A stretch of 46,494 nucleotides of DNA. It comes from Chiloscyllium plagiosum. Its lineage: Eukaryota. Position 1 is the first letter of the stretch; each line of letters begins with the position of its first letter. The position numbers were made by a program, and so were the translations under genes. The notes under the pieces are model-generated. The model saw nothing but the letters and a program-made list of their open reading frames with translations, had not been told where the DNA came from and made no database searches. Below are positions 20,375 through 46,494 of the stretch, one piece after another. The DNA is taken from contig NW_025214699.1 in NCBI RefSeq assembly GCF_004010195.1, positions 1-46,494 on the forward strand. Direction: 5' to 3'.

Positions 20375-21080
20375 TGACTGTGTGTCTGCCAGGCTGAAAC
20401 CTGCCCCGACAGCCTCAGATGTACCTGTGCCCATTGTCACCGCTGCAGATATAATCAGTCTTCCTGGGAATCAACTCAAGGAAAGCAACGGGCCTGGACA
20501 TTGTTCCCGGCAGTGCACATAGATCCTGCGTGGACCAATTGGCAAAGGTATTCACAAACGTCTTCAGCTTCTCCTTTCTTCAAGCCGAAGCCCCAACCTG
20601 CTTCAAGAAGACCAACATCATCCTTGTAAGTTAGAAAGCTCATGGAACGTGCTTTAGTGACGACCGCCCTGTGGCTCTGACCTCAATAAACATGAAGTGC
20701 GTCGAGAGGATGGTTATGGCCTTATTCACCTCCAATCTCCCAGCCTGCCCTGATGCACTATAATTTACCTACTGCTGTAACGGGTTCACAATGGATGCCA
20801 TATCCCGAGTCTTGCATTCATCCCTCGAACATCTGGACAACAAGGACACTGCTACTCATTGAATACGGCTCCAAATTCAAACCATGATCCCCTCCAGACT
20901 GACCTGAAAACTCCCTGAACTTGATCACGGCTCCATCCGCTGCAACTGGATCCCCAGGTTTCTGACCAACAGACCACACTCAGTGAAGATAAGCATCTGC
21001 ATCTCCGCCACATTAACACTCAACACTGGAACTCCTAGAGGATGTGTCATCAGGCCCTACTGTACTCGCTGTACACCAAC
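20375..21080 (+). mobile_element. Rex1/Babar-clade LINE reverse-transcriptase fragment, running directly into the satellite
   Basis: Manual translation, with stops and frameshifts: RKATGLDIVPG...CVDQLAKVFTNVF...PTCFKKTNII...DRPVALTSINMKCVERMVM...LHSSLEHLDNKDT...CNWIPRFLTNRPHSVKI...TLTLNTGTPRGCVI. This is collinear with the Rex1 RT up to motif B' (TGAPQGCVLSPLLYSLYTHDC). Confidence 0.9.
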
Positions 21081-21913
21081 AGCAGTGTCCTCGGCCACCT
21101 ACTGTACACCCTGTACACACCCGGGTGTGTCATCAGCCCCCTACTCTACTCCCTGTATGCCCACGCAGTGCCCTCAGCCCCCTACTGTACTCCCTGTACA
21201 CCAAAGGCTGTGTCCTTAGCCCCCGACTGTACTCCCCGTACACACACGGCTGTGTCCTCAGCCCGTACTGTGCTCCCTGTACACCCATGGCTGTGCCGTC
21301 ACCCCCCTACTGCAATCCCCTTACACCCACAGCTATGTCCTCAATCCCCTACTGTACTCCCTGTGCATCCACGTCTGTGTCTTCTGCCCCCTACTGCGCT
21401 TCCTGAATACCCACAGCTATGCCCTCAGCCCTCAACTGCACTCCCTGCACACCACACCCGCAGCCTCCTGCCCTAGTCCCTGTACACCCACAGCTGTGCT
21501 CTCAGCCCACGTCTGTACTCCCCGTGCTCCCACAAATGTGTCCTCAGCCCCCTACTGTTCTCGCCATATACCCATGGCTGTGTCCTCTGCGCCCTACTGC
21601 CCTCCCTGAATACCCACAGCTGTGGCCTCAGCCCCCTACTGCACTCCTTGTAAACCCACGGCTGTGTCCTCAGCCCCCTACTGTACCCACTGTACACCCA
21701 CGGCAGTGCCCTCAGCCCCCTTCTGTAGCACCTGTATAACCACAGATATTCACTAAGTCCCCAACAGTACTCCCTGCACACCCAAGGCTGTTCACTCAGC
21801 CCCCTACTGTATCCCCTGTACACCCATGGCTGTGTCCTCAGCACTCTACTATACTCCCTAGACACCCCGGCTGTGCCCTCAGCCGGCTACTGTACTCCCT
21901 GTGCACCCCAGCT

Positions 21914-22189
21914 NNNNNNNNNNNNNNNNNNNNNNNNNNNNNNNNNNNNNNNNNNNNNNNNNNNNNNNNNNNNNNNNNNNNNNNNNNNNNNNNNNNNNNN
22001 NNNNNNNNNNNNNNNNNNNNNNNNNNNNNNNNNNNNNNNNNNNNNNNNNNNNNNNNNNNNNNNNNNNNNNNNNNNNNNNNNNNNNNNNNNNNNNNNNNNN
22101 NNNNNNNNNNNNNNNNNNNNNNNNNNNNNNNNNNNNNNNNNNNNNNNNNNNNNNNNNNNNNNNNNNNNNNNNNNNNNNNNNNNNNNNNN
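21914..22189. other. Assembly gap (N run)
   Basis: Run of N. Confidence 0.99.
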
Positions 22190-25100
22190 CCCACTACTGT
22201 ACTCCCTGTATACCCACTGCTGTGTCCACAGCCTCCAATTGTACTCCATGTATACTCGCTGCTGTGTCTTTAGCCCCTACTGTACTCCCCGTATACCCAC
22301 TGCTGTGTCTTCAGACCCCTACTGTATTCCCTGTACATGCAAGGCTGTTCACTCAGTCCGCTACTGTTCTCCCTGTGCACCCCAGCTGCGTCCTCAGCCT
22401 GCTACTGTACTCCATGTGCACCCATGTCTATGCCCTCAGCCCACTATTGTACTCCCTGTATACCCACTATTGTGCTCTCAGCACCCTGCTAAACTACCCG
22501 TACACACACGGTTGTGTCCTCAGCCCCCTAATGTTTTCCCCGTACACTCACAGCTGTGCCCTCAGCCCCCTCACTGTACTCCCCGTGCAAGCCAACTGCG
22601 TCCTCAGCCCCCTACTGTACTCCCAGTACACCTATGTCTGTGCCCTCAGCCCACTACTGTACTCCCTGTATACCCACTGCTGTGTCCACAGCCCTCTATT
22701 GTACTCCCTGTGTACCCACTGCTGTGTCCTCAGACCCTTACTGTACTCCCTGCATACCCACTACTGTGCCTTCAGCACCCTCCTAAGCTACCCGTACACA
22801 CACGGCACTGTCATCAACCCCTTCCTGTACCACCTGCATAGCTACGGCTGTGCCCTCAGCATCCTACTGAACTCCCTGGACACCCGGGTTTTCCCTCAGT
22901 CCACTACTGTTCTCCCTGTACACCCACGGCTGTATCCTCAGCCTTCTACTGCACTCCCTGTACATACCCCGTGCCCTCAACGCCCTACTGTACTCCCTGT
23001 ACACCTTCAGCAGTGCTCTCAGCCTCCTACAGTACTCCCTGTGCACCCACGGCTGTGTCCTCAGTGCCCTACTAAACTACCCATATACCCACATCTGTGC
23101 CCTCAGCCCAATTCTGTACTCCTCGTACACCAACAAATGTGTCATCAGCCCCCTACCGTTCTCCCCATACGCCCATGGCTGTGACCTCTGCCCCCTTCTG
23201 CACTCCTTGTATACCTACGGCTGTGCCCTCAGCTCCCTGCTGTACTCCCTGTATACCCACAGGAGTTCACTCAGCCCCCTACAGTTCTCCCTGTACACCC
23301 ATGGCTGTGTCCTCAGCCCGCTATTGTACCCCATGTCCTCCCAAGGCTGATCACCCACAGCTGTGCCCTCACCCACTACTGTACTCGCCATACACTCACA
23401 AATGTGTCCTCAGCCCCTACTGTTCTCCCCATATACCCATGGCTGTGCCGTCAACCCCCTTCTGTACTCCCCGTACTCACAAAGCTATGTCCACAGCCCC
23501 ATACTGCACTCCCTGTAGACACAAGGCATGCCCTCAGCCTCCTACTCTTCTCCATGTAAACCGGGACGTGCCCTCACCCTCCTACTGTAACTCCCTGTAC
23601 ACCTACGGCTGTGACTTCATCCCCCTACTTTACTCCATGTACACCCATAGCAGTCTGCTCAGTCGCCTTCTCGGCGGCCCACACACCCAGAGCTGAGCCC
23701 TCATCCCCCTACTGTACTCCCTGTAGACCCAGAGCAGTGCCCTCAGCCTAATACAGTACCTTCCTTACACCCATGGCTGTGTCCTTAGCCCCCTAATGTA
23801 CTCCTGGTACACCCATGGCTGTGTCCTCAGCCCCCTACAATCCTTACTGAATACTCACAGCTGAGTCCTTAACCTCGCTACTGTGCTCCTCGTCCACACC
23901 AGTTGTGCCCTCAGCAACTTACTATACCCTCAACTCCCCGGTTGTGCCCTCAGCCTCCTACTGTATTCCTTGCACACCCCGGCTACGCTCTCAGCCCCCT
24001 ACTGTACTCCCTGTACACCCACAATTGTGTCCTCAGCTATTTACTTTACTCCCTGTACATCCCGGCTTTGCCCTCAGTCCCCTACTGCTCTTCCTATACA
24101 CACACAGCTGTGTCCTCAGCACCCTACTGTACCACTTGTATGCACGCATCCGTGTCCTCAGACCGTACTGTACCCCCTGCATACCCATGGCAGCGCCCTT
24201 ACTGCAATCCCCATGCACCCACAGCTATGTCCACAGCCCACTACTATACACCCTCAAATACGCCCTCAAACCCCTACTGTCCTCCCTGAATACCGACAGC
24301 TGTGTCCTCAGCCCCCAACTGAACCCCCTGTCAACCCCGGATGTGCACTTAACCCCCTACTGTCGCCCCTGTACACACAGCTGTGCTCTTAGGCCCCTAC
24401 TGTACCCCCTGTACACTCACGGCTGTGTTCCCAGCCCCCTACTGCACTCCCTGTACACACACAATAGTGCCCTCGCCCCCTACTGTACTCCCTGTATACC
24501 CACGACTCTGCCCTCAGCCCCCTACTGCACTCCCTGTACACACACGGCTGTGCCCTCAGCACCCTACTGTAACCACTGTCCACCCATGGCTATGTCCTCA
24601 TCCCCTACTGTACTCCCTGCACACACACGGCAGTGCCCTCGCCTCCTTATGTATTCCCTCATACCCATGGCTGTGCAATCTCCCCCCTACTGTACTCACT
24701 GTACACCAACGGCTGAGCCCTCAGCCCATTGCTGAACCCCATGTACACCTCGGCGGTGCATTCAGCCTCCTACTGTACTCCCTGTACACCCACGGCAGTG
24801 CACTCAGCACCCTACTGTACTCCCTGTACATCCATGGCTGTGCCCTCAGCTGTCTTCTATAATCCCTGTACACCCACTGCTGTGACCTCAGCTCCCTACT
24901 GTACTCCTTGTACATCCACGGCAGTACACTCTGCACCCTACTCTCCACCTGTACATCCATGGCTGTGCCCTCAGCTCCCTACTGTACTCCCTGTCCACTT
25001 ATGGCTGTGCCCTCAGCCCCCTTCTCTACTCCCTGTGCACCCTCAGCTGTGCCCTCAGCCCTCTACTGAAATCCATAAATACCCAACTGCTGTGTCCTCA

Positions 25101-28100
25101 ACACTCTACTGTATTCCCCGTACACACACAGCTGTACCATCAACACCCTACTCCACTCCCTGCACACCCACAGATTTGTCCTCAGACCCCTACTCTTCTC
25201 CCTGTAAACAAACAACTGTGTCCTTATCCCGCTACTGTACTCCCCGTACACCCACGGCTGTTCACTCAGCCCCCTACTGTACTTCCTGTATACCCGAGGT
25301 TATGCCCTCAGCCCCCTATTGTACTCCCTGTACTCCCCGGCTGTGTCCTCAGCCCCTACTGTACTCCCTGTAAACCCAAGTCTGTGTCGTCAGCCCCGTA
25401 CTGTACCTCCAGTAAACCCATAGCTGCGTCCCGAGCACCCTCCTGCACTCCTTGTACACCCATGGCTGTCTACTCAGCCCCGACTGTTCACCTGTACACC
25501 CACAGCTGTGCGCACAGCACCCTACTGCACTCCTTGTACACACATGGCTGTGTACTCAGCCCCACTGTACACTTGTGCACCCGCAGCTGTGCCCACAGAC
25601 CCCTACTGCACTCTCTGTTCACCCATGGCTGTGTCCTCAGTCCCCTACTGCTCTCCTTGTAACCACACATCTGTGTTCTCAGCACCTTACTGTACTCCCT
25701 GTTCACCCAAGCCTGTGTCCTTAGCCGCATACTCTATTCGCTGTACACCCCAGCTGTGCCCTCAGCCCTATTCTGTACTCCCTGTACTCCCATGACTGTA
25801 TCCTTTATCCCCCTACTGCACTCCCTGTACTCACTGGCTGTGCACTCACTCACCTACTGTACCCCCTTTAAACACACAGCTGTGTCCTCAGCCGCCTACA
25901 GGACTCCCTGTACGCCCACAGCTGTGCCCTCAGCCCCTACTGTACTCAATCAATACCCACGGCTGTGCCCTCAGCCCTCTATTCTACTCCCTGTACATAC
26001 ACAGCTGTGTCCTCAGCCCCCCACGGTACTTCCTGTACACCCGAGGTTAAGCCCTCAGCCCCCTATTGTACTCCCTGTACATCCACAGCTGTGTACTCAT
26101 CACCCTACTGTACTCCTGTACATCCAAGGCTGTGTCCTCAGCTCTCTACACCCTGTACACCTAGAGCTGTGCCCTCTACCCCAATACTCTACTCCCTGTA
26201 CACCCACGCCTGTGCCCTCAGTCACCTACTGTACTCCCTGTACACCAACGGCAGTGCCCTCAGTCCCCTACCCAACTCCCAGTACACCCCGGCTGTGACC
26301 TCAGCCCCCTACTGTACTTCATATACACCCTAGTTTATGCCCTCAGCCCTCTATTGTATTCCCTGCACTCCCCGGCTGAGTCCTCAGCTCCTACTGTACT
26401 CCCTGTAAACCCAAGTCGGTGTCATCAGCCCCGTACTATACCTCCAGTAAACTCATAGCTGCGTCCTCAGCACCCTACTGCCCTCCTTGTACACCCATGG
26501 CTGTGTACTCAGACGCCTACTGCTCTCCTTGTAACCACACGGCTGTGTTCTTCGCACCTTATTGTACTCCCTATACACCCAAGGCTGTGCACTTAGCCCA
26601 ATACTGTACTCGCTGTACACCGCAGCTGTGCCCTCAGCCCCATCATGTACTCCCTGTACTCCCATGACTGTATCTTTTAGCCCCCTTTTGCACTCCCTGT
26701 ATTCGATGACTGTGCATTCAGCCCCATACTGTACTCCCTGTACACCTACACCTGTACCCACATCCCTCTACTCCACTCCCTGTGCACACACAGCTGTGTC
26801 CTCAGGCCCCAACTGTATCCCTCGTAAACCCATAGCTGTGTTCTCAGCCCCATACTGTACTCCCTGTACACCCACGGCAGTGCCCTCAGCCCCCTACCCG
26901 ACTGCAAATACACTCACAGCTGTGCCCTCACCCCCCTACTCTACTCCCTGCCCACACACAGTTGTGCCCTCAGCCCTCTACTGTACTGTATGAATATCCA
27001 CAGCTGTGCCTTCAGCCCCCTACTTTACTCGCTGTACAAACTCAGCTGTGTCCTCAGAGCCTGCTCTACTCCCTGTACACCGACAGATGTGTCCTCAGCC
27101 CCCTACTGTACTCCTGCACACTCATGGCTGTGTCCTCAGCCCTATAGTGTACCGCCTGTACACACACAGCTGTGGCTTCAGCCGCCTACTGCATCCCTTG
27201 TACACCTGCAGCTGTGTCCGCAGCCCCATACCGTACTCCCCGTACACCCACAGCTGTGTCCTCAGACCCTGCTCTTCCCCCTGTGCACCTCGGCGCTGCC
27301 CTCAGCACCCCACTGTATTCCCGTACACCTATAACAGTGCCCTCAGCCACTTACCCAACTCAAAGTGCACACACGGCTGTGCCCTCAGCCCCCTACTCTA
27401 CTCCCTGTAAACCTACAGCTGTGCCCTCAGCCCCTACTCTACTCTCTGTACACCCACAGCTGAGAACCCAGCCCACTACTGAACTCCATGAATACCCACA
27501 TCTGTGCCCTCAGCCCTCTACTGTACTCCTGTACTGCCACGGCTGTGCCCTCTGCCCCCTATTCTACTTCCTGTACACACACAGCTGTGTCCTCAGCCCC
27601 ATACTCTACTCGCTGTGCACCCTCAGCTGTGTCCTCAGACCCTGCTCTACTCCCTGTATACCAACAGATGTGTCCTCAGCCCCCTACTGTATTCCCTGTA
27701 CACCGACGCTGTGTCCTCAGCCCTCTACTGTACTCCCAGTACACCTACAGCTATGTCCTCAGCTCCATACTTTGCTCCCCGTACAAATACCGCTGTGTCC
27801 TCTGCCCAATCCTCTAATCCCTGTACACGCACAGCTGTGCCCTCAGCCCCGAAGGTACACCCCATACACACACAGCTGCGTCCTCAGCCCTCTACTGTAG
27901 TCCTGTACACCTAAGGCTGTGTCGTCAGCCCTCTCGTGTTCCTCCTGCACACACACAGCTGTGTCCTCAGCCCCTACTGTATCCCTTGTACACCCACAGC
28001 TGCGTCCTCAGCCACTTACTCTACTCCCTGTACACTCACAGCTGTGTCCTTAACCACTTTCGCTTCTCACTATACACCCACAGCTGCGTCCTCAGCCCCC

Positions 28101-31100
28101 TACTGTACACCTTGTACACCTACAGCTGTGTCCTCAGTCCCCTACTATAATTCCTGTACACCTACAGTTGTGCCCTTTGCCCCATACTGCACTCCCCATA
28201 CACCCACGGCTGTGCCCTCAGCCCCCTACTGTAATCCATGTACACCCAGAGCTTGGCCTCAAACCCTGCTCTACCCCCTGTACTCGTTGATGTTGCCCTC
28301 AACACCCCACTCTATTCCTGTACACACACGGCTGTGCCCTCAGCCCCCTTCTGAACTCCCTGTAAACCCATGACTGTGCCGTCATCCTCATACTGTACTC
28401 CCCGTACACACATGGCTGTGCGCTCAGCACCCTATTGTACTACCTGTACACCCACAGCAGCGCCCTCATGCCCCTTTTCTACTCTCTGCACACTCACAGC
28501 TGTGTCCTCAGCCTTCTACTCTACTCCCTGTACACCGACAGCTGTGACCTCAGACCCTGCTCTACTCCGTGTACACCGACAGCTGTGTCCTCAGCGCCCT
28601 ACTGTACTACCTGTACCTCCACAGCTGTGTCCTCAACCCGATTCTATACTCCCCATACACCCACAGCTGTGCACTCAGCCCCCTACTGTATTCCCCATGC
28701 ACCCACAGCTGTGTCCTCCGCCTCCTACTGTATTCCCCGTGCACCCAAGGCTGTGTACTCAGCGCAATACTCTAATTGCTGTACACCCACAGCTGTGTCC
28801 TGAGCCCCCTACTGTACTACTGCACACTCATGGCTGTGTCCTCAGCCCCATAGTGTACCCCCTGTACACACACAGCTGTGTCCTCAGCCACCTACTGTAT
28901 CCTTTGTACACCTACAGATGTGTCCTCAGCCACCTACACTACTTCCTGTACACCGACAGCTGTGTCTTCAGCCCCCTACTGTACTCCATGTACACCTGCA
29001 GCTGTGTCCTCAGCCCCATACCCTACTCCCCGTACACCCACGGCAGTGCCCTCAGCCCCATATTGCACTCCGAGTACACCCTCAGCTGTGACCTCAGACC
29101 CTGCTCTACCCCCTGTACACCTCAGGGCTGCCCTCAGCACCTTACTGCATTACTGTTTACACATGGCAATGCCCTCAGCCTCCTACCCAACTCCCAGTAC
29201 ACTCACGGCTGTGCCCTCAGCCCTTACTCTACACCCTGTACACCCACAGCTGAGCACTCATCCCACTACTGTACTCCATGAATACCCATGGCTGTGCCCT
29301 CAGCCCTCTACTGTACTCCTGTACAACCACAGCTGGGCAGTCAGCCCCCTATTCTACTTCCTGTGCACACACAGCTGTGTCCACAGCCCCCTACTCTACT
29401 CGCTGTATACTCACAGCTGTGTCCTCAGACCCTGCTCTACGCCCTGTACACCAACAGCTGTGCCCTCAGCCCCCTTCTGTACTCCCTGTACACCTACAGC
29501 TATGTCCTCAGCCCAATACTCTAATCCCCGTACACACACAGCTGTGTCCTCAACACTCTACTGTACTCCTGTACACCTAAGGCTATGTCGTCAGCCCTCT
29601 AGTGTACTTCCTGTACACACACAGCTGTGTCCTCAGCCCCTATTGTATCCCTTGTACACCCATAGCTGTGTCCTCAGCCACCTACTCGACTCCCTGTACA
29701 CCCACAACTGCGTCCTTAAGCACCTACTGTACTCCTTATACACCTACAGCTGTGTCCTCAGCCCCCTTCTCTACTCCCTATACACACACAGCTGCGTCCT
29801 CAGCCCCATCCTGCACTCCCCATACACCCACGGCTGTGCCCTCAGACTCTGCTCTACCCCCTGTACACCCCGGCGCTGCCTTAGCACCCTACTGTATTCC
29901 TGTACACAGGTGGCTGTGCCCTCAGCCACCTTCTGAATTCCCTCTTACACCGATGACTGTGTCCTAAGCCCCATACTGTACTGCCCGTACACACATGGCT
30001 GTGCCCTCAGTCCCCAACCGAACTCCGAGTACACTCACAGCTGTTTCCTCAGCCCCCTACTCTCTCCCTGTACACCCACAGCTGTGTCCTCAGACCCTGC
30101 TCTACTCCGTGTACACCGACAGCTGTGTCCTCAGCACCCTACCGTAATCCCTGTACACATACAGCTGTGTCCTCAGCCCCATTCAGTACTCCCCATACAC
30201 CCACAGTTGTGCACTCAGACCATACTGTATTCCCCGTTCACCCACAGCTGTGTCCTCAGCCCCCTACTCTACTCTCTGTACACCCGCAGCTGAGCACTGA
30301 GCCCACTACTGTACTCCATGAATACCCACGGCTGTGCACTCAGCCCTCTACTGTACTCCTATACACCCATGGCTGTGCTATCAGATACTGCTATATGCCC
30401 AGTACACCTACAGCTGAGTCCTCAGCCCTCTACTGTACTCCTGTACACCCACGGCTGCGCCCTCAGACACTGCTCTAATCCCTGTACACCCACAGCTATT
30501 CCCTCAGTCCCCTAAGGTACACCCCGTACACACACAGCTGGGTCCTCAGCCCCCTACTGTATCCCTTGTACACCCACAGCTGTGTCCTCAGCCCCCTACT
30601 CTACTCCCTGTGCACCAACAGCTGTGTCCTCAGCCACCTACCCTACGCCATGTACACTCACAGCTGCGTCTTCAGCCCCCTACTGTATTCCCATTACACA
30701 CTCGGCTGTGCCCTCAGACCCTACCCTATTCTACTCCCCGTACACCCACAGCAGTGCCCTCAGCCCCCTACCCAACGCCCAGTGCACTCAAGGCTGTGCC
30801 CGCAGCCCCAACTCTACTCTCTGTATACCCACAGCTGAGCACTCAGCCCACTACTGTACTCCATGATTACCCACAACTGGGCTCTCAGCCCTCTACTGTA
30901 CTCCTGTACACCCATGGCTGTGCCCTCAGCCCCCTATTCTAATTCCTGGACACACACAGCTGTGTCCTTAGACCCCTACCCTACTCGCTGTGCACCCACA
31001 TCTGTGTCCTCAGACCCTGCTCTACGCCCTGTACACCGACAGATGTGTTCTCAGCCCCCTACTGTACACCCTGTACAACGACAGCTGTGTCCTCAGCCCC

Positions 31101-34100
31101 CTACTGTACACCCTGTACACCGACAGTTGTGTTCTCAAAGCCATACAGTGCTCCCCGTACTCCGACAGCTGTGTTCTCCGCCCCACTGTACTCCCTGTAC
31201 ACTGACAGCTGTGTCCTCAGCCCCTACTGTACTCGCAATACACCTACAGCTGTGTCCTCAGACTCTGCTCTACTCCGTGTACACCGACAGCTGTGTCCTC
31301 AGCACCCTACTGTACTCCCTGCACACCTACAGCTGTGTCCTCAGCCCCATTCTGTACTCCCCATACACCCACAACTGTGCACTCAGCCCCCTATTGTATT
31401 CCCCGTGCACGCATGGCTGTGCCCTCAGCCTCCTACCAAACTCCTTGTACACTCACAGCTGTGTCCACAGCCCAATACTCTAATCCCTGTACACCCACAG
31501 CTGTGTCCTGAGCACCCTACTGTACTCCTGCACACTCATGGCTGTGTCCTCAGTCCTATAGCGTTTTCCCTGTGCACACACAGCTGTGTCCTCAGCCACC
31601 TACTCTACTCCCTGTACACCGACAGCTGTGTCCTCTGCCCCTTACTGTACTCCCTGTACACCAACAGCTGTGTCCTCAGCCCCCTACTGTACTCCTTGTA
31701 CACCTACAGCTGTGTCCCCAGCCCCATACTCCCCATTACACACACGGCTGTGCCTTCAGCCCCTCACTGCACTCCCTGTACACCCACAGCTGTGTTTTCA
31801 GACATTGCTCTAAACCCTGTACACCTCGGCGCTGTCCTCAGCACACTAACGTATTCCTGTACACCCATGGCAGCGACCTCAACCACTTACCCATCTCCCA
31901 GTACACACATGGCAGTGCCCTCACCCCCCTACGGTACTCGCTGTACACCTGAAAGTGTGCCCTTGGCCCCCTATTGTACTTCCTGTACACACACAGCTGT
32001 GTCCCCAGCCCCCTACTCTACTCGCTGTACACCGACAGCTACGTCCTCAGCCCACTACCGTACTCCCTGGACACCAACAGCTGTGTCCTCAGCACCCTAC
32101 TGTACTCCCCATTACACATACGGCTGTGCCTTCAGCCCCCCTACTGCACTCCCCTTATATCGACAGCTGTGTTTTCATACCCTGCTTTAAACCCTGCATA
32201 CCTCGACGCTGCCCTCTGCACACTACTGTATTCCTGTACACCCACGGCAGCGCCCTCAGCCACTTACCCATCTCCCAGTACACACACAGCAGTGCCCTCA
32301 CCCCCTATGGTACTCCCTATACACCTACAGCTGTGCCCTCATCCCAATACTGTACTCCAAATACATTCTGTGCCCTCAACCCCAGAATGTACTCCCTGTA
32401 CACCCACAGCAGTGCCCTCAGGTCCCTACCCAAATCCCAGTACACTCACGACTGTGCCTTCAGCCCCCTACTCTACTCTCTGTACACCCGCAGCTGTGCC
32501 CTCAGGCACTGCCCTACTCCCTGTACACCGACAGCTGTATCCGCAGCCCCCTACTGTACTCCCAGTACACCTATAGCTGAGTCCTCAGCCCTCTACTGTA
32601 CTCCTGTACACCTACGGCTGTGCCCTCAGACACTGCTCTAATCCCTGTACACGCACAGCTATGCCCTCAGCCCCCTAAGGTACACCGCGTACCCACTCAG
32701 CTGTGTCCTCAGCCCCCTACTGTATCCATTGTGCACCGACAGCTGTGTCCTCAGCCCTCTACTCTACTCCCTGTGCACCAACAGCTGTGTCCTCAGCCAC
32801 CGACCCTACGCACTGTACACTCACAGCTGTGTCCTCAGCCCCTATTGTACTCCCAGTACACTCACGGCTGTGCCCTCAGCCCCTACTCTATTCTCTGTAC
32901 ACCCACAGCTAAGCACTCAGCGCACTACTGTACTCCATGAATACCCACAGCTGTGCCCTCAGCCCTCTACTGTACTCCTGTACACCCATGGCTGTGCCCT
33001 CAGCTCCCTATTCCACTTCCGGTACACACACAGCTGTGTCCTCAGCCCCCTACTCTACTTGCTGTGCACCCACATCTGTGTCCTCAGACCCTGCTCTACG
33101 CCCTGTACTCCGACAGATGTGTCCTCAGCCCCCTACTATAGTCACAGTACACCGACAGCTGTGTCCTCAAAGCCATACCGTGCTCCCCTTACACCGACAG
33201 CTGTGTCCTCAGCCCCCTACTGTACTCCCTGTACACTGACAGCTGTGTCCTCAGCCCCTACTGTACTCCCAGTACACCTAGAGCTGTGTCCTCAGACTCT
33301 GCTCTACTCCGTGTACACTGACAGCTGTGTCCTCAGCACCCTACTGTACTCCCTGCACACCTACAGCTGTGTCCTCAGCCCCATTCTGTACTCCCCATAC
33401 ACCCACAGCTGTGCACTCAGCCCCCTATTATATTCCCCGTGCACGCATGGCTGTGCCCTCAGCCCCCTACCCAACTCCTTGTACACTCACAGCTGTGTCC
33501 TCAGCCCAATACCCTAATCCCTGTACACCCACAGCTGTGTCCTGAGCTCCCTACTGTACTACTGCACACTCATGGCTGTGTCCTCAGTCCTATAGCGTTT
33601 CCCCTGTGCACACACAGCTGTCTCCTCAGCCACCTACTCTACTCCCTGTACACCGACAGCTGTGTCCTCTGCCCCCTACTGTACTCCCTGTACACCAACA
33701 GCTGTGTCCTCAGCCCCCTACTGTACTCCTTGTACACCTACAGCTGTGTCCTCAGCCCCCTACTGTACTCCTTATACACCTACAGCTGTGACCTCAGCCC
33801 CATACTGTACTACTCATTACACACACGGCTGTGCCTTCAGCCCCTCACTGCACTCCCTGTACACCCACAGCTGTGTTTTCAGAAACTGCTCTAAACCCTG
33901 TACACCTCGTCGCTGCCCTCAGCACCCTACCGTATTCCTGTACACCCATGGCAGCGACCTCAACCACTTACCCATCTCCCAGTACACACATGGCAGTGCC
34001 CTCACCCCCCCTACGGTACTCCCTGTACACCTAGAGCTGAGCCCGCAGCCCCCTATTCTACTTCCTGTACACACACAGCTGTGTCCCCAGCCCCCTACTC

Positions 34101-35112
34101 TACTCGCTGTACACCCACAGCTGTGTCCTCAGACCCCTACTGTAGTCCCAGTACACTGACAGCTGTGTTCTCAGCCCCCTACTGTACTCCCTGTACACCG
34201 ACAGCCGTGTCCTCAGCCCCCTACTGTAGTCCGAGTACACTGACAGCTGTGTCCTCAGCCCCCTACTGTACTCCCTGTACACCGACAGCTGTGTCCTCAG
34301 CCCCCTACTGTACTCCAGTATACCTACAGCTGTGTCCTCAGACCATGCTCTACTCCGTGTACACCTACAGCTGTGTCCTCTGCCCAATAATCTAATCCAT
34401 GTAAACACACATGAATGCCCTCAGCCCCCTAAGGTACACCCCGTACACAAACAGCTGTGTCCTCAGTCCCCTAATGTACTCCTGTACACCTAAGGCTGTG
34501 TCCTCAGCCACCTACTCTACTCCCTGTACACCTACAGCTGTGCCCTCAGCCCCCTACTGTACACCTTGTACACCGACTGTTGTGTCCTCAAACCCATACT
34601 GTCCTCCCCATACACCCATGGCTGTACCCTCAGCCCACTACTGTATTACCTTGACACCCACAGCTGTGTCAAACCTTGCTCTACTCCCTGTACACCTCGG
34701 CGCTGCCCTCAGCACCCTACTGAATTCCCTGTACACCCACGGCAGTGCCCTCAGCCACTTACCGAACTCCCAGTACACACAAGGCTTGGCCCTCAGCCTC
34801 ATACTGTACCTCTGTGCACCCAAGGCTGTGTCCTCAGCCCGCTAGTGTACTCCATGTACACACACGGCTATGTCCTCAGCCCCTACTGTACTCACTGTAC
34901 ACTCCAGCTGTACCATCAGCCTGTACTCCCTGTACAGCCACGCCTGTTCCCTCTGCCCCCTACCGTACTCCTGTACACCCAAGGCTATGTCCTCAGCCCT
35001 CTAGTGTACCCCCTCTACACACACGGCTGTGTCCTCAGCCCCTACTGCACTCACTGAACACCCCAGCTGTTGCATCAGCCCCGTACTGTACTCCCTGTAC
35101 ACCCACAGTTGT

Positions 35113-35255
35113 NNNNNNNNNNNNNNNNNNNNNNNNNNNNNNNNNNNNNNNNNNNNNNNNNNNNNNNNNNNNNNNNNNNNNNNNNNNNNNNNNNNNNNNN
35201 NNNNNNNNNNNNNNNNNNNNNNNNNNNNNNNNNNNNNNNNNNNNNNNNNNNNNNN
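35113..35255. other. Assembly gap (N run)
   Basis: Run of N. Confidence 0.99.
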
Positions 35256-38036
35256 CTCAGCCCTCTACTGTACTCCTGTACACCTACGGCTGTGCCCTCA
35301 GACACTGCTCTAATCCCTGTACACGCACAGCTATGCCCTCAGCCCCCTAAGGTACACCGCGTACCCACTCAGCTGTGTCCTCAGCCCCCTACTGTATCCA
35401 TTGTGCACCGACAGCTGTGTCCTCAGCCCTCTACTCTACTCCCTGTGCACCAACAGCTGTGTCCTCAGCCACCGACCCTACGCCCTGTACACTCACAGCT
35501 GCGTCTTCAGCCCCCTACTGTATTCTCATTACACACTCGGCTGTGCCCTCAGACCCTACCCTATTCTACTCCCCGTACACCCACAGCAGTGCCCTCAGCC
35601 CCTACCCAACTCCCAGTACACTCAAGGCTGTGCCCGCAGCCCCTACTCTACTCTCTGTATACCCACAGCTGAGCACTCAGCCCACAACTCTACTCCATGA
35701 TTACCCACAACTGGGCTCTCAGCCCTCTACTGTACTCCTGTACACGCACAGCTGTGCCCTCAGCCCCCTATTCTAATTCCTGTACACACACAGCTGTGTC
35801 CTCAGACCCCTACCCTACTCGCTGTGCACCCACAGCTGTGTCCTCAGACCCTGTTCTACGCCCTGTACACCGACAGATGTGTTCTCAGCCCCCTACTGTA
35901 CACCCTGTACAACGACAGCTGTGTTCTCAACGCCATACAGTTCTCCCCGTACTCCGACAGCTGTGTTCTCCGCCCCTACTGTACTCCCTGTACACTGACA
36001 GCTGTGTCCTCAGCCCCTACTGTACTCGCAATACACCTACAGCTGTGTCCTCAGACTCTGCTCTACTCCGTGTACCCTGACAGCTGTGTCCTCAGCACCC
36101 TACTGTATTCCCTGCACACCTACAGCAGTGTCCTCAGCCCCATTCTGTACTCCCCATACACCCACAGCTGTGCACTCAGCCCCCTATTGTATTCCCCGTG
36201 CACGCATGGCTGTGCCCTCAGCCCCCTACCCAACTCCTTGTACACTCACAGCTGTGTCCACAGCCCAATACTCTAATCCCTGTACACCCACAGCTGTGTC
36301 CTGAGCTCCCTACTGTACTCCTGCACACTCATGGCTGTGTCCTCAGTCCTATAGCGTTTCCCCTGTGCACACACAACTGTGTCCTCAGCCACCTAATCTA
36401 CTCCCTGGACACCGACAGCTGTGTCCTCTGCCCCCTACTGTACTCCCTGTACACCAACAGCTGTGTCCTCAGCCCCCTACTGTACTCCTTGTATACCTAC
36501 AGCTGTGTCCTCAGCCCCATACTGTACTCCCCATTACACACACGGCTGTGCCTTTAGCCCCTCACTGCACTCCCTGTACACCCACAGCTGTGTTTTCAGA
36601 CACTGCTCTAAACCCTGTACACCTCGGCGCTGCCCTCAGCACCCTACCGTATTCCTGTACACCCATGGCAGCGACCTCAGCCACTTACCCATCTCCCAGT
36701 ACACACATGGCAGTGCCCTCAGCCCCCTACGGTACTCCCTGTACACCTAGAACTGAGCCCGCAGCCCCATACTCTACTTCATGTACACACACAGCTGTGT
36801 CCCCAGCCCCCTACTGTAGTCCTAGTACACTGACAGCTGTGTTCTCAGCCCCCTACTGTAGTCCCAGTACACTGGCAGCTGTGTCCTCAGCCCCCTACTG
36901 TACTCCCTGTACACCGACAGCTGTGTCCTCAGCCCCCTACTGTACTCCGGTACAACTACAGCTGTGTCCTCAGACCATGCTCTACTCCGTGTACACCCAC
37001 AGCTGTGTCCTCTGCCCAATAATCTAATCCATATAAACACACATGAATGCCCTCAGCCGCCTAAGGTACACCCCGTACACAAACAGCTGTGTCCTCAGTC
37101 CCCTAATGTACTCCTGTACACCTAAGTCTGGGTCCTCAGCCACCTACTCTACTCCCTGTACACCTACAGCTGTGCCCTCAGCTCCATACTGTATCCCTTG
37201 TACACCCACAGCTGAGTCCTCAGCCCCCTACTGTACACCTTGTACACCGACTGTTGCGTCCTCAAACCCATACTGTCCTCCCCATACACCCATGGCTGTA
37301 CCCTCAGCCCCCTACTGTATTACCTTGACACCCACAGCTGTGTCCTCAGACCTTGCTCTACTCCCTGTACACCTCGGCGCTGCCCTCAGCACCCTACTGA
37401 ATTCCCTGTACACCCACGGCAGTGCCCTCAGCCATTTACCGAACTCCCAGTACACACAAGGCTTGGCCCTCAGCCTCATACTGTACCTCTGTGCACCCAA
37501 GTCTGTGTCCTCAGCCCGCTAGTGTACTCCCTGTACACACACGGCTATGTGCTCAGCCCCTACTGTACTCACTGTACACTCCGGCTGTACCATCAGCCCC
37601 CTACAGTACTCCCTGTACAGCCACGCCTGTTCCCTCTGCCCCCTACTGTACTCCTGTACACCCAAGGCTATGTCCTCAGCCCTCTAGTGTACCCCCTCTA
37701 CACACACGGCTGTGTCCTCAGCCCCTACTGCACTCACTGTACACCCCAGCTGTTGCATCAGCCCCGTACTGTACTCCCTGTACACCCACAGTTGTATCTT
37801 CAGCTCCCTACTGTACTCCCTGCATATCCACAACTGTGTTCTATTCACCCTATTATACTCTGTACACCAAAGGCTGTGACATCAGCCCTCTACCGAACTC
37901 CTGTACACACACGGCTATGTGTGCCCCCTACAGAATGCCCTGTAACCCCGGCTGTGGCCTCAGCCCCCTACCACCCTCACCGTACACTCACGGCGGTGTC
38001 GGCAGCCCCTACTGTACTCCCTGTACATCCACAACT

Positions 38037-38525
38037 NNNNNNNNNNNNNNNNNNNNNNNNNNNNNNNNNNNNNNNNNNNNNNNNNNNNNNNNNNNNNNNN
38101 NNNNNNNNNNNNNNNNNNNNNNNNNNNNNNNNNNNNNNNNNNNNNNNNNNNNNNNNNNNNNNNNNNNNNNNNNNNNNNNNNNNNNNNNNNNNNNNNNNNN
38201 NNNNNNNNNNNNNNNNNNNNNNNNNNNNNNNNNNNNNNNNNNNNNNNNNNNNNNNNNNNNNNNNNNNNNNNNNNNNNNNNNNNNNNNNNNNNNNNNNNNN
38301 NNNNNNNNNNNNNNNNNNNNNNNNNNNNNNNNNNNNNNNNNNNNNNNNNNNNNNNNNNNNNNNNNNNNNNNNNNNNNNNNNNNNNNNNNNNNNNNNNNNN
38401 NNNNNNNNNNNNNNNNNNNNNNNNNNNNNNNNNNNNNNNNNNNNNNNNNNNNNNNNNNNNNNNNNNNNNNNNNNNNNNNNNNNNNNNNNNNNNNNNNNNN
38501 NNNNNNNNNNNNNNNNNNNNNNNNN
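38037..38525. other. Assembly gap (N run)
   Basis: Run of N. Confidence 0.99.
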
Positions 38526-40873
38526 CCCACAGGTACTGTACCCCAGTGTTATACAGGATTGTGTCGTCAACCCCCTACTGTAATCCTCGTCACCCTGGCA
38601 GTGCCCTCAGACCCCCTAATGTACACTCATGACTGTGCCCTCAGCCCCCTACTGTACTCCCTGTACACTCACAGATGCGTGCTCAGCCACCTACTGTACT
38701 CCCTGTACACCCACTGCTGTGTCTTTAGACCTCTACTGTACTCCCTGCATACTCACAGCTGTGACCACAGCCCACAAATGTACACCCGTACACCCACTGA
38801 TGTGTAATCAGCCCCCTACTGTACTTCCCGCACAAAAGGGGCTGAGTACTCAGGCCCCTACTGTACTTTCCGAACACACAGTGCTGTGCCATCAACGCCC
38901 TATTTTACTCCCAGTACACCCTGGCAGTGCTCCCAGCCCCCTAATGTACTACCTGTACACATATGGCGGTGTCCTCAGTCACATACTGTATTCCCTGTAC
39001 ACCCCAGCTGTTTCCTCCACCCCATGCGGTACTCCCCGTACACCCCGGTTGTGTCCTCAGCTTCCTACTGTACTCCCTGTACATCCACAACTGTGCCCTT
39101 CGCTCCCTACTTCACCGCCGGTAAAACCATGGCTGTGTCCCCAATCCCTCTACTGTACTCCCTGTAAACCCACGCTGTGTCCTCAGCCCCCTGCTGTACT
39201 CCCTGTACACTCACAGCTGTGCCCTCTGCTTCTACTGCACTCCTGGTACAACCACCGCTGTGTCCTCACACCCCCTCTACTGTACTCTCCGAACACACAG
39301 GGCTATGCCGTCAACCCCCTACTATACTCATCGAACACCCTGGCAGGGCCATCAGCCCCCTACTGTACTCCCTGAACACGCACAGCTGTGTCCTCAAGCA
39401 CCCAACTGTACTCCCAGTACACCCACTTCTGTGTCCTCAGCCCTCAACTGTACTCCCCGTACACACAGGGCTGTACTGTCCACCCCCTACGGTACGCCTC
39501 GTACACACTGCTTTGCCCTCAGCCCCCAACTATAATCTCTGTACACACAGGGCTGTGTGTCCTCAGCCCCCTACTGCACTCCCTGTACAGACAAAGCTGT
39601 GGTCTCAGCCACCGACTGAAATCCCCGTATACACATGGCTCTGTCCTCACCACTCCACTGCACTCCCTGTCCACCCAGCTGTACCCTCAGCCCCGTACTC
39701 TACTCGCTGTACACCGCGGCTGTGCCCTCAGCTCCCTTCTGAACTCTCTGTGCATCCACGGCTGTGGTTTCTGCCCACACTGTTCTCCCTGCCCATCTAC
39801 TCGCTGTACACCCACAGCTGTGTCCTCAGCCACCGACTGTACTCCCTGTATACACACAGCTGTGTCCTCAGTCCCCTACTGTACTCTACGTACACCCACG
39901 GCTGTGCCCTCAGCACCCTACTGTACTCCCCATACACCCACGACTGTGTGCCCAGCTACTTACTGTATTCCCTGTACACCCACGGCTCTGCCCTCAGGCA
40001 CCAACTCTATTCCGTGTACATGCTCACAGAACCCTACTGTACTCCTCATACACCACGGCTGTGTGCTCAGCCGCCGACACTACTCCCTGTACGCCCACAG
40101 TTGTGCACTCAGGCACCTCATTGCACTCCCTGTACATCCATGGCTGTTTACTCAGCCCCCTACTGTATTCGCTGTACACCCACAGCTGTTTCCTCTGCCC
40201 CCTACGTTACTCCCCATACACCCCAGCTGTGTCCTCAGCCTCCTACTGTACTCCCTGTATTTCTACAACTGTGCCCTTATCACCCTACTGGACTCCTGTA
40301 CACCAAAGGCTGTGTCCGCAGCCATCTACTGTACTCCTATAAACACACGGCTTTCGCCTCAGTACACGACCGTACACCCTGAAAAAACCCAGCTGTACTC
40401 TCAGCCCACGACTGTACTCACTGTACAACCACAACTGTGCCTTCAGCACCCTATACTGTACTCCCTGCACATCCACAACTGTCTCCTCATCCCCCTACTG
40501 AACTCCTGTACACCCAAGGCTGGGTCCTCAGCCCCCTACTGTACTCTCTGTACATCCAAGGCTGTGTCCTCAGCCCCCTACGGTTCTCCCTGTACATGCC
40601 AGCTGTGCCCTCAGCCACATATTAAAAACTCTGTACACCTCTGGCTGTGTCCTCAATCCCATAGTATACTCCCTACACCCACGGCTGTGCCTTCAGCCTC
40701 CTACGGCACCCCTTGTAAACCATGGCTGTGTCCTCATCCCCCTACTGTACTCCCTGTAAACTCACACTGTGTCCTCAGCCCCCTACTGTACTCCTGGTAC
40801 AACCACCGCTGTGTCCTCACCCCCCACTGTACTCCACTTACATCCATGGCTGTGCCCTCAGCACCCTACAGTA

Positions 40874-40999
40874 GATGATTAGATTAGATTACTTACAGTG
40901 TGGAAACAGGCCCTTCGGCCCAACAAGTCCACACCGACCCGCCGAAGCGCAACCCACCCATACCCCTACATTTACCCCTTTAACCTAACACTACGGGCA
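40874..40999 (-). mobile_element. 5'-truncated HE1 SINE (3' tail portion) inserted in the satellite
   Basis: tagattacttacagtgtggaaacagg cccttcggcccaacaagtccacaccgacccgccgaagc is nearly identical to 10956-11055. cagta occurs on both sides (40869-40873 and 40998-41002). Confidence 0.92.
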
Positions 41000-41844
41000 G
41001 TACTCCCCATACATCCACAGCTCTGCCCTCAGGCACCAACTCTACTCCGTGTACATGCTCACAGTACCCTACTATACTCCTCATACACCACGGCTGTGTC
41101 CTTAGTCCCCGACACTACTCCCTGTACGCCCACAGTTGTGCCCTCAGGCACCTACCGCACTCCCTGTACATCTACGGCTGTTCACTCAGTCCCCTGCTGT
41201 ATTCGCTGTACACCCAGAGCTGTTTCCTCCGCCCCCTACGGTATTCCCCGTGCAACCCAGCTGTGTCCTCAGCCTCCTACTGTACTCCCTGTACATCCAC
41301 AACTGTGTCCTCATCACCCTACTGGACTCCTGTACACCAAAGGCTGTGTCCGCAGCCATCTACTGTACAGCTATAAACACACGGCTTTTGCCTCAGTACA
41401 CGACAGTACACCCTGAAAAACTACAGCTGTACTCTCAGCCCACTACTGTACTCATCGTACAACCACAACTGTGCCTTCAGCACCCTATACTGTACTCCCT
41501 ATACATCCACAACTGTCTCCTCATCCCCCTACTGTACTCCTGTATACCTAAGGATGTGTCCTCAGCCCACTACTGTACTCCCTGTACCTGCAAGGCAGTG
41601 TCCTAAACCACCTACTGTTCTACCTGTACATGCCAGCTGTGCCCTCAGCCACATACTGAAAACTCTGTACACCCATGGCTGTGTCCTCAGTCCCATAGTG
41701 TACTCCCTACACCCATGGCTGTGCCTTCAGCCCCCAACTGCACTCGCTCTACTCCCCGGCTGTGTGCTCACCCCCATACTGTATTCCCTGTAAACCCATG
41801 GCTGTGTCCCTATCCCCCTACTGTAATCCTTGTACACTCACAGC

Positions 41845-41919
41845 NNNNNNNNNNNNNNNNNNNNNNNNNNNNNNNNNNNNNNNNNNNNNNNNNNNNNNNN
41901 NNNNNNNNNNNNNNNNNNN
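41845..41919. other. Assembly gap (N run)
   Basis: Run of N. Confidence 0.99.
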
Positions 41920-44900
41920 TCTCCTCCCCGAACACACAGGGCTCAGCCGTCAATCCTCTACTATACTCATCGTACACCTTGGCAGTACCCTCAGCCTCCG
42001 ACTGTACTCCCTGTACACCCACTGCTGTGTCTTAAGCCCCCACCTGTACTCCTCGTAAACACAGGGCTGTGCCGTCAATCCCCTACGGTACTCCTCATAC
42101 AACCTTCACTCCCGCCTGTAATCTCTGTACACATGGGGCTGTGTGTCCTCAGCCCCCTACTGCACTCCCTGGGCACTCAAAGCTATGCTCTCAGCCCCCT
42201 ACTGAAACTCCTGTATACTCACGGCTCTGTCCTCAGCCCTCCACTACACTCCCTCTATACCCCGGCTGTACCCTAAGCTCCGTACTGTGCTCCCTGTACA
42301 CTGCGGCTGTGCCCTCAGCCCCCTAGTGTACTCCCTGTACATCCACGCCCGTGTTTCCAGCCCCCTATTGTTCTCCCTGTATATCTACGTCTGTGCCCTC
42401 AGCCCCATACTCTACTCGCAGTCCACCACAGCTGTGTCCTCAGACCCCGACTGTTCTCCCTATATACACACTGCTGTATCCTCAGTCCCCTACTGTACTA
42501 CACGCATATCCACGGCTGTGCCCTCAGCCCCCCACTATACTCCCTGTACAGCCACGTCAGTGTCCTCAGCCCCATTGCACTGCCTGTGCACCAACAGCTC
42601 TGCCCTCAGCACCCTCCTGTACTCCCGATACACCCACAGCTGTGTGCTCAACCACCTACTGTACTCCCTGTACACCTACCGTTCTGCCCTCAGGCACCTA
42701 CTCTACTCCGTGTACACGCAGAGGTGTACACTCAGTACCCTACTGTACTCCTCATACACCCACGGCTGTGTCCTCAACCGCCTACATTATTTCCTGTACG
42801 CCCACAGTTGTGCCCTCAGGCACCTACTGCACTCTCTGCACACACACGGTTGTGTCCTCAGTCCCTACTGTACTCCCTGTACACCTACAGCTGTGCCCTC
42901 AGTCCCCTACTGTACCCCTTGCACACTCACAGCTGTGCTCTCAGCCTCCTACTGTACTCCCGGTACACCCACTGCTGTGTTATCAGCCCCCTACTGTACT
43001 CCCTGAACACACAGAGATGTGCCATCAACCCCTTACACTACTCCTCATACACCCTGGCTATGCCCTCAGCACCCTACTGTACTCCCTGTACACCTACGAC
43101 TGTGTCCTCAGCCACATACTATTCAACCCGTACACCCACAGCTGTTCACTCAGCCCCCTACTGCACTTCCTGTACACCCACAGCTGTTTCCTCCGCCCCC
43201 TACGGTACTCCCCTTACACCCCGGTTGCGTCCTCAGCCTCCTACTGCACGCCCTGTACATCCACAACTGTGTCCTCATCACCCTATTGCACTCTGTTCAC
43301 GAAAGGCTGTGTCCTCAGCCCTCTACTGTGTTCCTGTACAGACACAGCGCTTTCACCTCAGCATCCTACTGTAAACCCTGAAAACCCCAGTTGTACCCTC
43401 AGCACACTACTGTTCTCACTGTACACTCACAACTGTCCTGTCAGCACACTACTGTACTCACTGTACACCCACAGCTGGTCCCTCAGCACCCTACTATACT
43501 CCCTGTGCATCCACAACTGTGTCCTCATCCCCCTACTGTACTCCTGTACAAACCAAGCTATGTCCTCAGCCCCATACTGTACTCCCTGTACACCCTCGGC
43601 TGTCACCTCAGCCCCCTACTGCACTCCCTGTACAGCCAAGGCAGTGTCCTCAGCCCCCTACTGCACTTCATGTACAGCTACGGCTGTCCCCTCAGCCCCA
43701 TAGTGTATCCCTTGTACACCCACGGCTGTGTCCTCAGCCCTCTATTTACTCCCTGTACACTCACAGCTCTGCCCTCAGCCCCCAGCTGTACTCCCAGTAC
43801 ACCCACTGCTGTTTTCTCAGCCTCAACTATAGTCCCCGCACACACACGGCTGTGCCGTCAACCACATATGGTACTTCTCGTACACCCGCTTTGCCCTCAG
43901 CCCCCGACTGTGCTCCCTGTACATCCAAGGCTGTGCCCTCAGCTCCATATTCTACTCGCTGTACATCCACAGCTGTGTCCTCAGCCCCGACTGTACTCCC
44001 TGTACAGCGACGGCAGTGTCCTCCACCCCCTACTGAACTTCCTGTACAGCTACGGCTGTGCCCTTAGCCCCCATACTGTACCATTTGTACACCCACAGCT
44101 GTGTCCTCAGCACTCTACAGTACTCCAGTACAAACCAAGCTTTGTCCTCAACCCCCTACTGCACTCCCTGTACAGCCACGGCAGTGTCCTCAGCCCCCTA
44201 CTGCACTCCCTGTACAGCCACGGCAGTGTCCTCAGCCCCCTATTGCACTTCATATACAGCTACGGCTGTCCCCTCAGCCCCCATAGTGTATCCCTTGTAC
44301 ACCCACGGCTGTGTCCTCGCTATGTTCTCACCCCCCTACTGTACTCCCCGAACACACAAAGCTGTGCCGTCAAACCTGTACTGTACTTCTCATACACACT
44401 GGCAGTGCCCTCAGCTCCCTACTGTACTCCCTGCACACTCAAAGCTGTGTCCTCACCCCCAAACTGTACTCCCGGTACACACACTGCTGTGTCCTCAGCC
44501 CCCAGCCGTACTCCCCGTACTACACAGGCTGTGCAGTCAACTCCCACCTGTACTCCTCGTGCACTCTGCTTTGCCCTCAGCACCCGACTGTACTCCCCAT
44601 ACACCAACAGCTGTGTGCTCAGCCACCTACTACACTCTCTGTGTACCCACACGGCTGTACACACACGGCTGTGTCCTCAGCCCTCTACTGCACTCCCTGC
44701 CCTCTCCAGCTTTGCCCTCATCCCCCTACTGTGCTCCCTCTACATCCACGGCTGTGTTATCAGCCCCATACTGTACTCAAAATATTCCCCGGCTGTGTCC
44801 TCAAGCCCCTACTGTACTCCCCGTACTCCCATGGCTGTCACCTCAGCCCACTATTGTACTCCCTCTGCAGCCTCGGCAGTGACCTCAGCCCCCTACTGCA

Positions 44901-46494
44901 CTTCCTGTACAGCTACCGCTGGGCCCTCAGCCCCCATACTATACCCCTTGTACACCCACAGCTCTGCCCTCAGCACCCTACTGTACTCCCCATACACCAA
45001 CGGCTGTGTGCTCAGCCACCTACTACACTCCCTGTGTACCCACGGCTCTGTCATCAGGCAACGACTCTGCTTCCTGTCCAGACACGACTGTGCCCTCAGC
45101 CCGCTCCTCTATTCTGTGTGAACCTACAGCTGTGCCCTCAGCCCCCTACTGGATTCCCTGAAAATCCATGGCTGTGTCCTCAGCCCCCTACTGTACTCCC
45201 CGTACACTCACAGCTGTACCCTCTGCCCCGACTGTACTCCTGGTACAATTAGCGCTGTTTTCTCACCCCTCACTGTACTCCTCGAACACACAGGGCTGTG
45301 CCGTCAACCTCCTATTGTTCTCCTCGTACACCGTGGCAGTACCCTCAGCCCCCTACTGTACTCCCTGTAAACCCACGTCTGTGTCCTCAGCCCCCGACTG
45401 TACTCCACGTACACCCACGTCTGTGCCCTCACCCCTCTACCGAACTCCCTGTACAGTCATGGCAGTGTCCTTACTCCCCTACTGCAGTCCCAGTAGAGCC
45501 ATGATTGTGCCCTCACCCCTGTACTGTATCCCCTGTACACTCACGGCTGTATCCTCAGCCCTCGACTGTTCTCCCTGTACACCCACAGCTCTGCTCTCAG
45601 TACCCTACTGTACTTCCCATACACCCACGGCTGTGTGCTCGGCCACCTACTGTACTCCCTGTACACACACAGCTGTGTCCTAGGCCCCTACTGTACTCCC
45701 TGTTAACTCACAGCTGTGCCCTCAGCCGCCTACACTACACCCTGTACACCCACAGACGTGCCCTCAGTCCCCTACTGCACTGCCTGTACATGCACGACTG
45801 TGTCCTCAGCCCCTACTGTACTCCCTATTAACCCACAGCTGTGCCCTCAGCCGCCTACACTACACCCTGTACACCCACAGAAGTGCCCTCAGTCACCTAC
45901 TGCACTGTCTGTACACACATGGCTGTGTCCTCAGCTCCCTACTGTACTCCCTGCATACTCACAGATATGCCCTCAGCCCCCACCTGTGCTCTCCCCACAC
46001 ACTGGGCTCAGTCGTCAGCCCTCTACTGTACTTCCCAAACAGAGGGCTGTGCCATCAACTCCCTACTGTAATCCTCGTACACCCTGGCTGTGCCCTCATT
46101 CCCCTACTGTATTCCCTGTACACCTATAGTTGTGTCCTCGGTAACATGCTGTACTCTCCGTACACCCACAGCTGTTCACTCAACCCCCGACTGTATTCCC
46201 TGTACACCAACAGCTGTTTCCCCCGCCCCTTATGTTACTCCCCGTACACCCTGGCTGTGTCCTCAGCCTCCTACTGCCATCCCTGTACATCCACAACTGT
46301 GTCCTCATCACCCTACTGGACTCCTGTACACCAAAGGCTGTGTCCTCAGCCCTCTACCATACACTTGTACAAACACAGCTATGTCCTCAGCCCACTACTG
46401 CAATCATTGTACACCTCAGCTGAGTCCTCAGCCGCCGACTGTACACCATGTACACACAAAAGTTTGCCCTCAGCCCCCTACTGTATTCCCTCTA

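Follow-up and report, generated by a model that had tools for sequence, protein, structure and literature searches.

The 46,494-nucleotide stretch of contig NW_025214699.1 from the shark Chiloscyllium plagiosum (hereafter, the window) contains a head-to-tail array of 42-bp repeats, which is almost certainly derived from a 14-codon motif of a reverse transcriptase (RT). A decayed RT of a non-long terminal repeat (non-LTR) element, which we take to be of the Rex1/Babar type, still adjoins the array and is in register with it. The best explanation, to which we assign a probability of about 0.6, would be a selfish, non-coding tandem array seeded by a Rex1-type long interspersed nuclear element (LINE).

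Origin of the repeat unit

The top autocorrelation lag corresponds to a period of 42 (0.54), and wrap-around alignment resolves 593 units from position 21040 to 46494, the end of the window. The array spans 25,455 bases, of which 24.5 kb are called, the remainder being four N gaps with 983 N in total. Unit length is 42 bp in 351 and 41 bp in 141 of the 593 units. As many as 571 units are distinct and none is identical to the consensus; mean identity to the consensus is 81.8%, and the 568 near-complete units share 73% pairwise identity on average. The array contains 186 PvuII sites and 256 BsrGI sites. The initial annotation had described a satellite of more than 25 kb reaching the window end; the period and the extent stand, but the array is interrupted by the four gaps and shows much more divergence and layering than the term "satellite" would lead one to expect.

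The majority consensus reads SCVLSPLLYSLYTH, and the unit at 21660–21701 is representative. Column 1 is polymorphic (A in 53% and G in 40% of units); with the G allele, the consensus encodes GCVLSPLLYSLYTH. The encoded motif, presumably motif B' of the RT, was found 72 times in 69 of the 155 fetched proteins, in no case as a tandem 14-codon repeat: in the three proteins with two copies, these are 107–290 residues apart. Of 71 full rows, 61 have D and 65 have C after it, and the GVKQGDPMSPLLF stretch of solved R2 RTs aligns with it via the relative P0083. At the DNA level, the unit shares 23–38 of 42 bases with relatives (75 matches to the motif across 96 loci, chiefly of fish DNA in metagenome and genome contigs). 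The proposal that the unit encodes an RT motif is supported both by the protein motif rows and by the DNA of fish Rex1-like RTs, which match it at up to 38/42 positions. The unit is the coding DNA of a single RT motif in near-pristine form. The longest BLAST match of a three-unit query among the 96 loci is 48 bp, hence none of them carries the motif in tandem.

Two further observations concern the relatives. The motif position is skipped in eight of the nine confirmed whale-shark gene models that span it (P0002, P0005, P0014, P0020, P0034, P0039, P0067, P0145), while P0113 retains a decayed motif; the skipping could reflect introns predicted over decayed DNA or masking of the motif as a repeat. 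Fish LINE sequences within bacterial genome records, both metagenome-assembled genomes and isolates (L080–L091, L096), are host contamination.

The adjoining reverse transcriptase

The RT fragment (20395–21039, plus strand) is 5'-truncated and decayed, with three in-frame stops and a brief out-of-frame stretch; it starts slightly ahead of RT domain 0 and stops right before the GCVLSPLL motif. Its homology begins near 20400, and not at 20375 as initially annotated. In tblastn comparisons, a full-length tilapia element matches 20461–21057 with 44% amino acid identity over 203 residues (E 5e-44), and identity to P0003 and P0002 is 44–54%; the nearest proteins are whale-shark gene models, one of which is 54% identical. 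Identity to RVT_1 proteins (44–55%), together with the alignment of the motif to solved R2 RTs, identifies it as a non-LTR RT related to CR1-clade elements. The Rex1/Babar label is our assumption, and Rex1 does not appear as a name among the 20 proteins examined. No Pfam match was obtained with the decayed RT piece of the window alone, and the viral contigs searched with the RT alignment contained no relative. There is no apurinic/apyrimidinic (AP) endonuclease in the window, while the full-length relative P0003 has one (PF03372, E 2e-5). According to PMC6274825, Rex1/Babar elements encode this enzyme upstream of the RT and frequently lose it via 5' truncation. The 3' part of the element, which in Rex1/Babar comprises a conserved 3' untranslated region and an oligonucleotide tail, would lie past the array.

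The RT reading ends in TLTLNTGTPRGCV, followed directly by the G codon at 21040–21042. This codon opens unit 1 (21040–21080, plus strand), the element's own GCV...YTH motif, 41 bp long owing to one deleted base and keeping the register of the RT on one side and of the array on the other. No extra bases separate the RT from unit 1, in agreement with the earlier claim that the RT runs without intervening sequence into the array at 21040.

Only 21 units (21040–21913) are gap-free with the RT. The join might have been produced by misassembly through the shared 42 bp, as the array contains four scaffold gaps and the 228-bp block right after the second gap (35256–35483) is 100% identical to 32584–32811, which represents either a very recent duplication or assembly redundancy. 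We consider this explanation very improbable. The region 19400–21450 is covered, at 80% likeness, by contigs of sequencing runs X1, X3, and X5 and by raw reads of X10 (four of the 24 listed runs). One X5 contig (record 24) spans 20912–21114 with 10 differences, running from the RT through unit 1 and 33 letters deep into unit 2, and two X3 contigs, starting at 20858 and 20868, extend to 21080 with 93–94% identity. Since a contig of another study bridges the RT and the first two units, the junction exists outside this assembly and is no artefact of it. Further, a rare multi-unit variant at 21492–21575 recurs at 23093 and 23359, beyond the N gap, with scores of 34–36 compared to 13–22 for the remaining dimers ahead of the gap; the junction contig is thereby linked to the following one. 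None of the listed pieces reaches 99% identity over a long stretch, and the junction pieces may therefore be alleles or stem from a close relative or a close duplicate.

The first duplication

It had been suggested initially that the GCV (ggctgtgt) and DCV (gactgtgt) codons, 42 bp apart, supplied the microhomology for the first slippage or unequal exchange. A G(G/A)CTGTGT direct repeat with this spacing was likely present in the shark parent, and to this extent the suggestion holds. The consensus unit boundary is CAC-GGC (the hyphen marks the boundary), so the exchange point sat at the left edge of the repeat, before the G/A mismatch, and the H and G codons were kept. We propose that the Q-GCV and H-DCV codons formed an imperfect direct repeat CA(A/C)G(G/A)CTGTGT, at which slippage or unequal exchange would have duplicated the motif while the copy was young; an exchange between the H and G codons would have created a CpG at each unit boundary. 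Among 588 junctions between units, the states CAC-AGC, CAC-GGC, and CAT-GGC are observed 114, 58, and 51 times, respectively; the boundary CpG made by the exchange has since decayed, and this decay is indicative of past methylation only.

Fish relatives show a mean lag-42 match of 6.7/12 over 62 loci, and in whale-shark P0113 the motif is followed by V-A-K-F. In records jumping from 21030 to 21173, the side measures 41 letters for X1, X3, and X10 and 28 letters for X5. Counted from 21173, 41 letters end precisely after GGCTGTGT, the place at which an intact element would depart from the array; this is what parents that are intact and carry the direct repeat are expected to show.

The cacgactgtg units noticed earlier near 32447, 39939, and 45793 are all present, and another one lies at 45083. 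Their interpretation as relics is rejected: A at column 2 occurs in 46 of 582 units (7.9%), within the range of G>A changes in the other five G columns (4.5–9.0%), and these units are therefore background G>A changes.

The consensus is an unmutated, open motif, which implies that seeding preceded decay. The same would hold if the first duplication had occurred during retrotransposition, the RT slipping or jumping at the direct repeat while copying its own RNA, in which case the element would have been inserted with at least two copies. The unit can form two 5-bp hairpins, and the fold of a trimer is more stable than that of shuffled sequences (z of -2.9 and -2.4; 5 of 300 shuffles as stable per strand), as this route would favour. 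However, early slippage after insertion makes the same prediction for the consensus, and a tandem 14-codon repeat is found in 0 of 96 fish loci and 0 of 155 proteins. We regard duplication during retrotransposition as improbable.

Growth and decay of the array

Downstream of unit 1, the array comprises three layers on the plus strand. Of 120 units in the left, older layer (21081–26498; N gap at 21914–22189), 11 carry the derived allele 24C, and best-partner identity is 88%. The younger core (26499–36792; N gap at 35113–35255) has 24C in 89 of 239 units and contains kilobase-scale duplications at 95–98% identity, with lags of approximately 2.0, 2.7, and 4.8 kb, clustered in 30.4–37.8 kb; 58% of 240 core units have a partner at 95% identity or more. 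The right, older layer (36793–46494; N gaps at 38037–38525 and 41845–41919) has 24C in 16 of 208 units and is open at the window end, the units running on to the last base. The left and right layers do not differ in 24C (p 0.68), and allele 1A has the same shape along the array. The core limits were drawn post hoc, and a scan test that allows for this yielded a value reached in 0 of 1000 permutations. When units were collapsed at 92%, 24C was found in 30 of 94 core clusters vs 21 of 239 flank clusters, one cluster containing 160 units.

A regular higher-order repeat was rejected, as identity by unit lag is flat (0.72–0.74), and so was a divergence gradient from the junction, as identity per 2 kb is 0.77–0.84. 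Homogenisation is visible only as the multi-unit duplications in the core. This pattern may be explained by growth from a dimer to at least 593 units via unequal exchange and multi-unit duplication, with later turnover in the middle of the array pushing older units to both sides; all units would have decayed neutrally, the boundary CpG being lost by methylation.

The array is non-coding. Substitution is flat across codon positions (14.4, 12.2, and 14.9%, with five polymorphic columns excluded), and 51 of 323 full units (16%) bear stops vs 21% in simulations, which together argue for neutral decay. The idea of a protein-coding repeat kept by selection may draw on the slightly lower stop frequency and on the fact that the consensus is open in each of its three plus-strand frames, with stop-free runs of up to 579 codons in the array. 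We give it hardly any credence: these runs constantly change frame, just 351 of 593 units are 42 bp long, the codon positions are equally substituted, and protein searches yielded no repeat protein. Specifically, one search with array translations gave 0 matches and another a single ordinary RT at E 3.4, and the Atlas matches were all below 0.9. An Rfam search gave no match. The sequencing runs listed for 19000–21900 include no RNA run, and no RNA run was aligned.

The RT flank and the array appear to be of similar age. The flank agrees with the majority of 15 related copies (nine of them confirmed whale-shark ones) at 112 of 180 residues, a value to which approximately 10 out-of-frame codons and the lineage difference contribute divergence, while the units retain 68% of the amino acids, compared to 74% in simulation at the array's own mutational load and 63% at 1.5 times that load.

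Place of birth and size of the repeat family

The repeat family is probably much larger than the window shows, as suggested jointly by read depth in excess of what the window's array yields, by go-back joints, and by satellite-type loose ends. Raw reads of X10 reach depths of 1107, 175, and 85 across three bins of the first units, whereas with four BLAST settings simulated reads of the window's array give 15–38, 6–17, and 2–5 per 1x. Given 1,934 million sequenced letters and a genome assumed to measure 3–5 Gb, the repeat would exceed the window's array 16- to 180-fold, bearing in mind that depth is no copy number, that parent copies contribute to it, and that the simulation used a different aligner. 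The 102 reads on six listed go-back joints are approximately all that the window's array could yield, and a further 449 joints are unlisted. Loose ends at 21168 and 21264 are of satellite type in X1 and X3, the former also in X5. A 27-base unit-boundary pattern was absent from the genome, viral, and metagenome contigs searched (0 matches), which is weak evidence given that these collections are poor in shark DNA.

Immediately 5' of the RT lies a composite block (19900–20394) of a minus-strand CR1/L2-like RT scrap, with KFADDT in a minus-strand frame, a short high-copy repeat piece, and unassigned sequence. Nine of 24 listed contig pieces cross position 20390, at the 5' edge of the RT, with 83–90% identity and no dip in read depth, and the block is therefore multi-copy. 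Unrelated repeat scraps joined to the RT fragment across 19900–20610 are found in several distinct contigs per sample (83–92% identity; raw-read depth across the join 90–225), and this segment may be a medium-copy chimeric element or a duplicated block.

The array was probably born at this locus (20395–46494) or at the ancestor of a duplicated junction. The units at the junction are of the old type, the flank and the array are similar in age, and the consensus is pristine. We do not put this more strongly: a junction just as seamless would result from homology-driven capture or from duplication, and the far end of the array lies beyond the window. In the proposed history, it is the most tentative step that the RT-array junction would be the original seed or its duplicate, with the family having since grown manyfold.

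Several observations weigh against birth at this locus and against the mechanism proposed for it. The far end, where the RT should resume, lies outside the window. The first units are covered at no less than 16 times the depth that the window's array could yield, so most of the family would lie elsewhere, and the block 5' of the RT being multi-copy, the junction may be one of several copies. The X5 contig that bridges the junction is shallow (depth 4.08), and its identity is 95% rather than 99%. As for the direct repeat, its support in the shark family is indirect. Homology at lag 42 is ordinary in most fish relatives, a median of 740 out of 33,550 position-lag pairs being as good over the 62 loci, and a repeat of 9–10/12 (top 0.1%) is present in three of seven DCV loci, while the other four fall short. 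Finally, the 41-letter limit of the jumping records could equally come from the RT side of the joint.

A less probable alternative is that the satellite was born from the motif elsewhere and the array later joined an RT copy via the 42 bp, through ectopic recombination or conversion. This would be expected to leave an identical seamless, in-frame join; there are hundreds of RT copies, and the genome appears to hold more than 10 times as much satellite as the window; moreover, unit 1 has no special kinship to its neighbours, its best dimer partners being at 38.8–40.6 kb with background scores. On the other hand, the junction-side units belong to the old layer of an array that is symmetric about its younger core, and flank and units are similarly decayed, so any capture would have to be ancient. 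The in-register join also follows from duplication of the junction itself, which birth at an ancestral junction would accommodate.

Other sequence features

A fairly well-kept CR1-type RT is located at 316–1521 on the plus strand (Pfam RVT_1, E 1e-22; 24% identical to Rex1-like proteins), and further CR1-like scraps lie at 4580–5089 (minus strand), 9767–10135, 11450–11818, and 17117–17488. The regions 9075–12138 and 5707–7065 are recent local duplications; the duplicated segments include 913 bp at 97% (9550–10456 and 11227–12138), 489 bp at 95%, and 615 bp at 93% with short tandem units of 77–81 bp inside. Palindromic elements in 6321–6457 and 17913–18082 (138 bp at 91% and 97 bp at 85%) suggest small inverted-repeat transposons, and 17974–18082 is found again at 50–159 (91%).

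Comparison with known tandem repeats

The proposed mechanism fits the short-direct-repeat model of minisatellite birth, in which tandem repeats, including Alu-derived ones, arise between direct repeats of 5–10 bp (Haber and Louis 1998, via PMC6947457 and PMC3389668); such flanks were reported for 300 of 7,276 human tandem repeats that stem from transposable elements (PMC3389668). As in those minisatellites, a transposon stretch between short direct repeats would have been duplicated and amplified inside its parent, which here is seen on the 5' side of the array, the 3' side being beyond the window. Unlike them, the shark unit is a conserved RT coding motif, the direct repeat is imperfect, and there are at least 593 units.

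Satellites derived from LINEs include chicken HinfI and Cen2/3/4/7/11 (from CR1), the cetacean common satellite (from L1), and PROsat (from LINE-1) (PMC6947457). Like these, the shark repeat is a vertebrate satellite that arose from part of a non-LTR retrotransposon. To our knowledge, the units of the CR1 and L1 satellites are much longer, and no in-frame junction with the parent has been described for them. Partial homology to the LINE Rex-Babar is reported for the fish satellite HviSat04-2959 of Harttia (PMC11955569), which has a complex unit of approximately 3 kb including Tc/Mariner pieces, in contrast to the single motif of the shark repeat.

Layered expansion is known from human alpha satellite (10.1101/2021.07.12.452052), and the shark array likewise has a younger, more homogeneous, duplicated core between symmetric older repeats; it differs in spanning tens of kilobases rather than megabases, in its 42-bp unit, and in lacking evidence of centromere function. 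The large yellow croaker has a 42-bp tandem unit, Cen-42 (PMC12631908, Table S10); identity with the shark unit was rejected, by eye only, as there is no in-register match on either strand and the motif is not encoded. An endogenous retrovirus origin has been proposed for an owl centromeric satellite (10.1101/2024.07.05.602039). Short shark chromosomes are richer in simple tandem repeats, no such unit being named in the available part of the report (PMC10620051). No description of the shark 42-bp repeat was found in the literature searched, which excluded most subscription journals, Repbase, and Dfam, and a search with the motif sequence gave 0 papers; the repeat is apparently undescribed, although an entry in an existing repeat library is possible. 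The route from a transposon piece to a tandem repeat is itself known, and the shark case is unusually easy to trace.

Significance

Most satellites have no known ancestor, while for this one the parent family reveals the founding unit. With the neutral flank as an age reference, CpG loss, the mutation spectrum, and the position of turnover become measurable directionally. Layered growth at this small scale and without any sign of a centromere bears on the question whether layering needs a kinetochore. With its three open plus-strand frames, the repeat can mimic long open reading frames and RT matches in shark genome annotation.

It is conceivable, though rather unlikely, that the RT motif is a built-in seed and that the array belongs to a megabase-scale shark satellite family of tens to hundreds of arrays, many of them anchored at this codon, which could have arisen by repeated independent births or by the spread of a composite flank-RT-array unit. 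If so, each array would come with a known ancestral unit and a dated flank, and the family would constitute a set of replicated natural experiments in satellite birth and layered growth.

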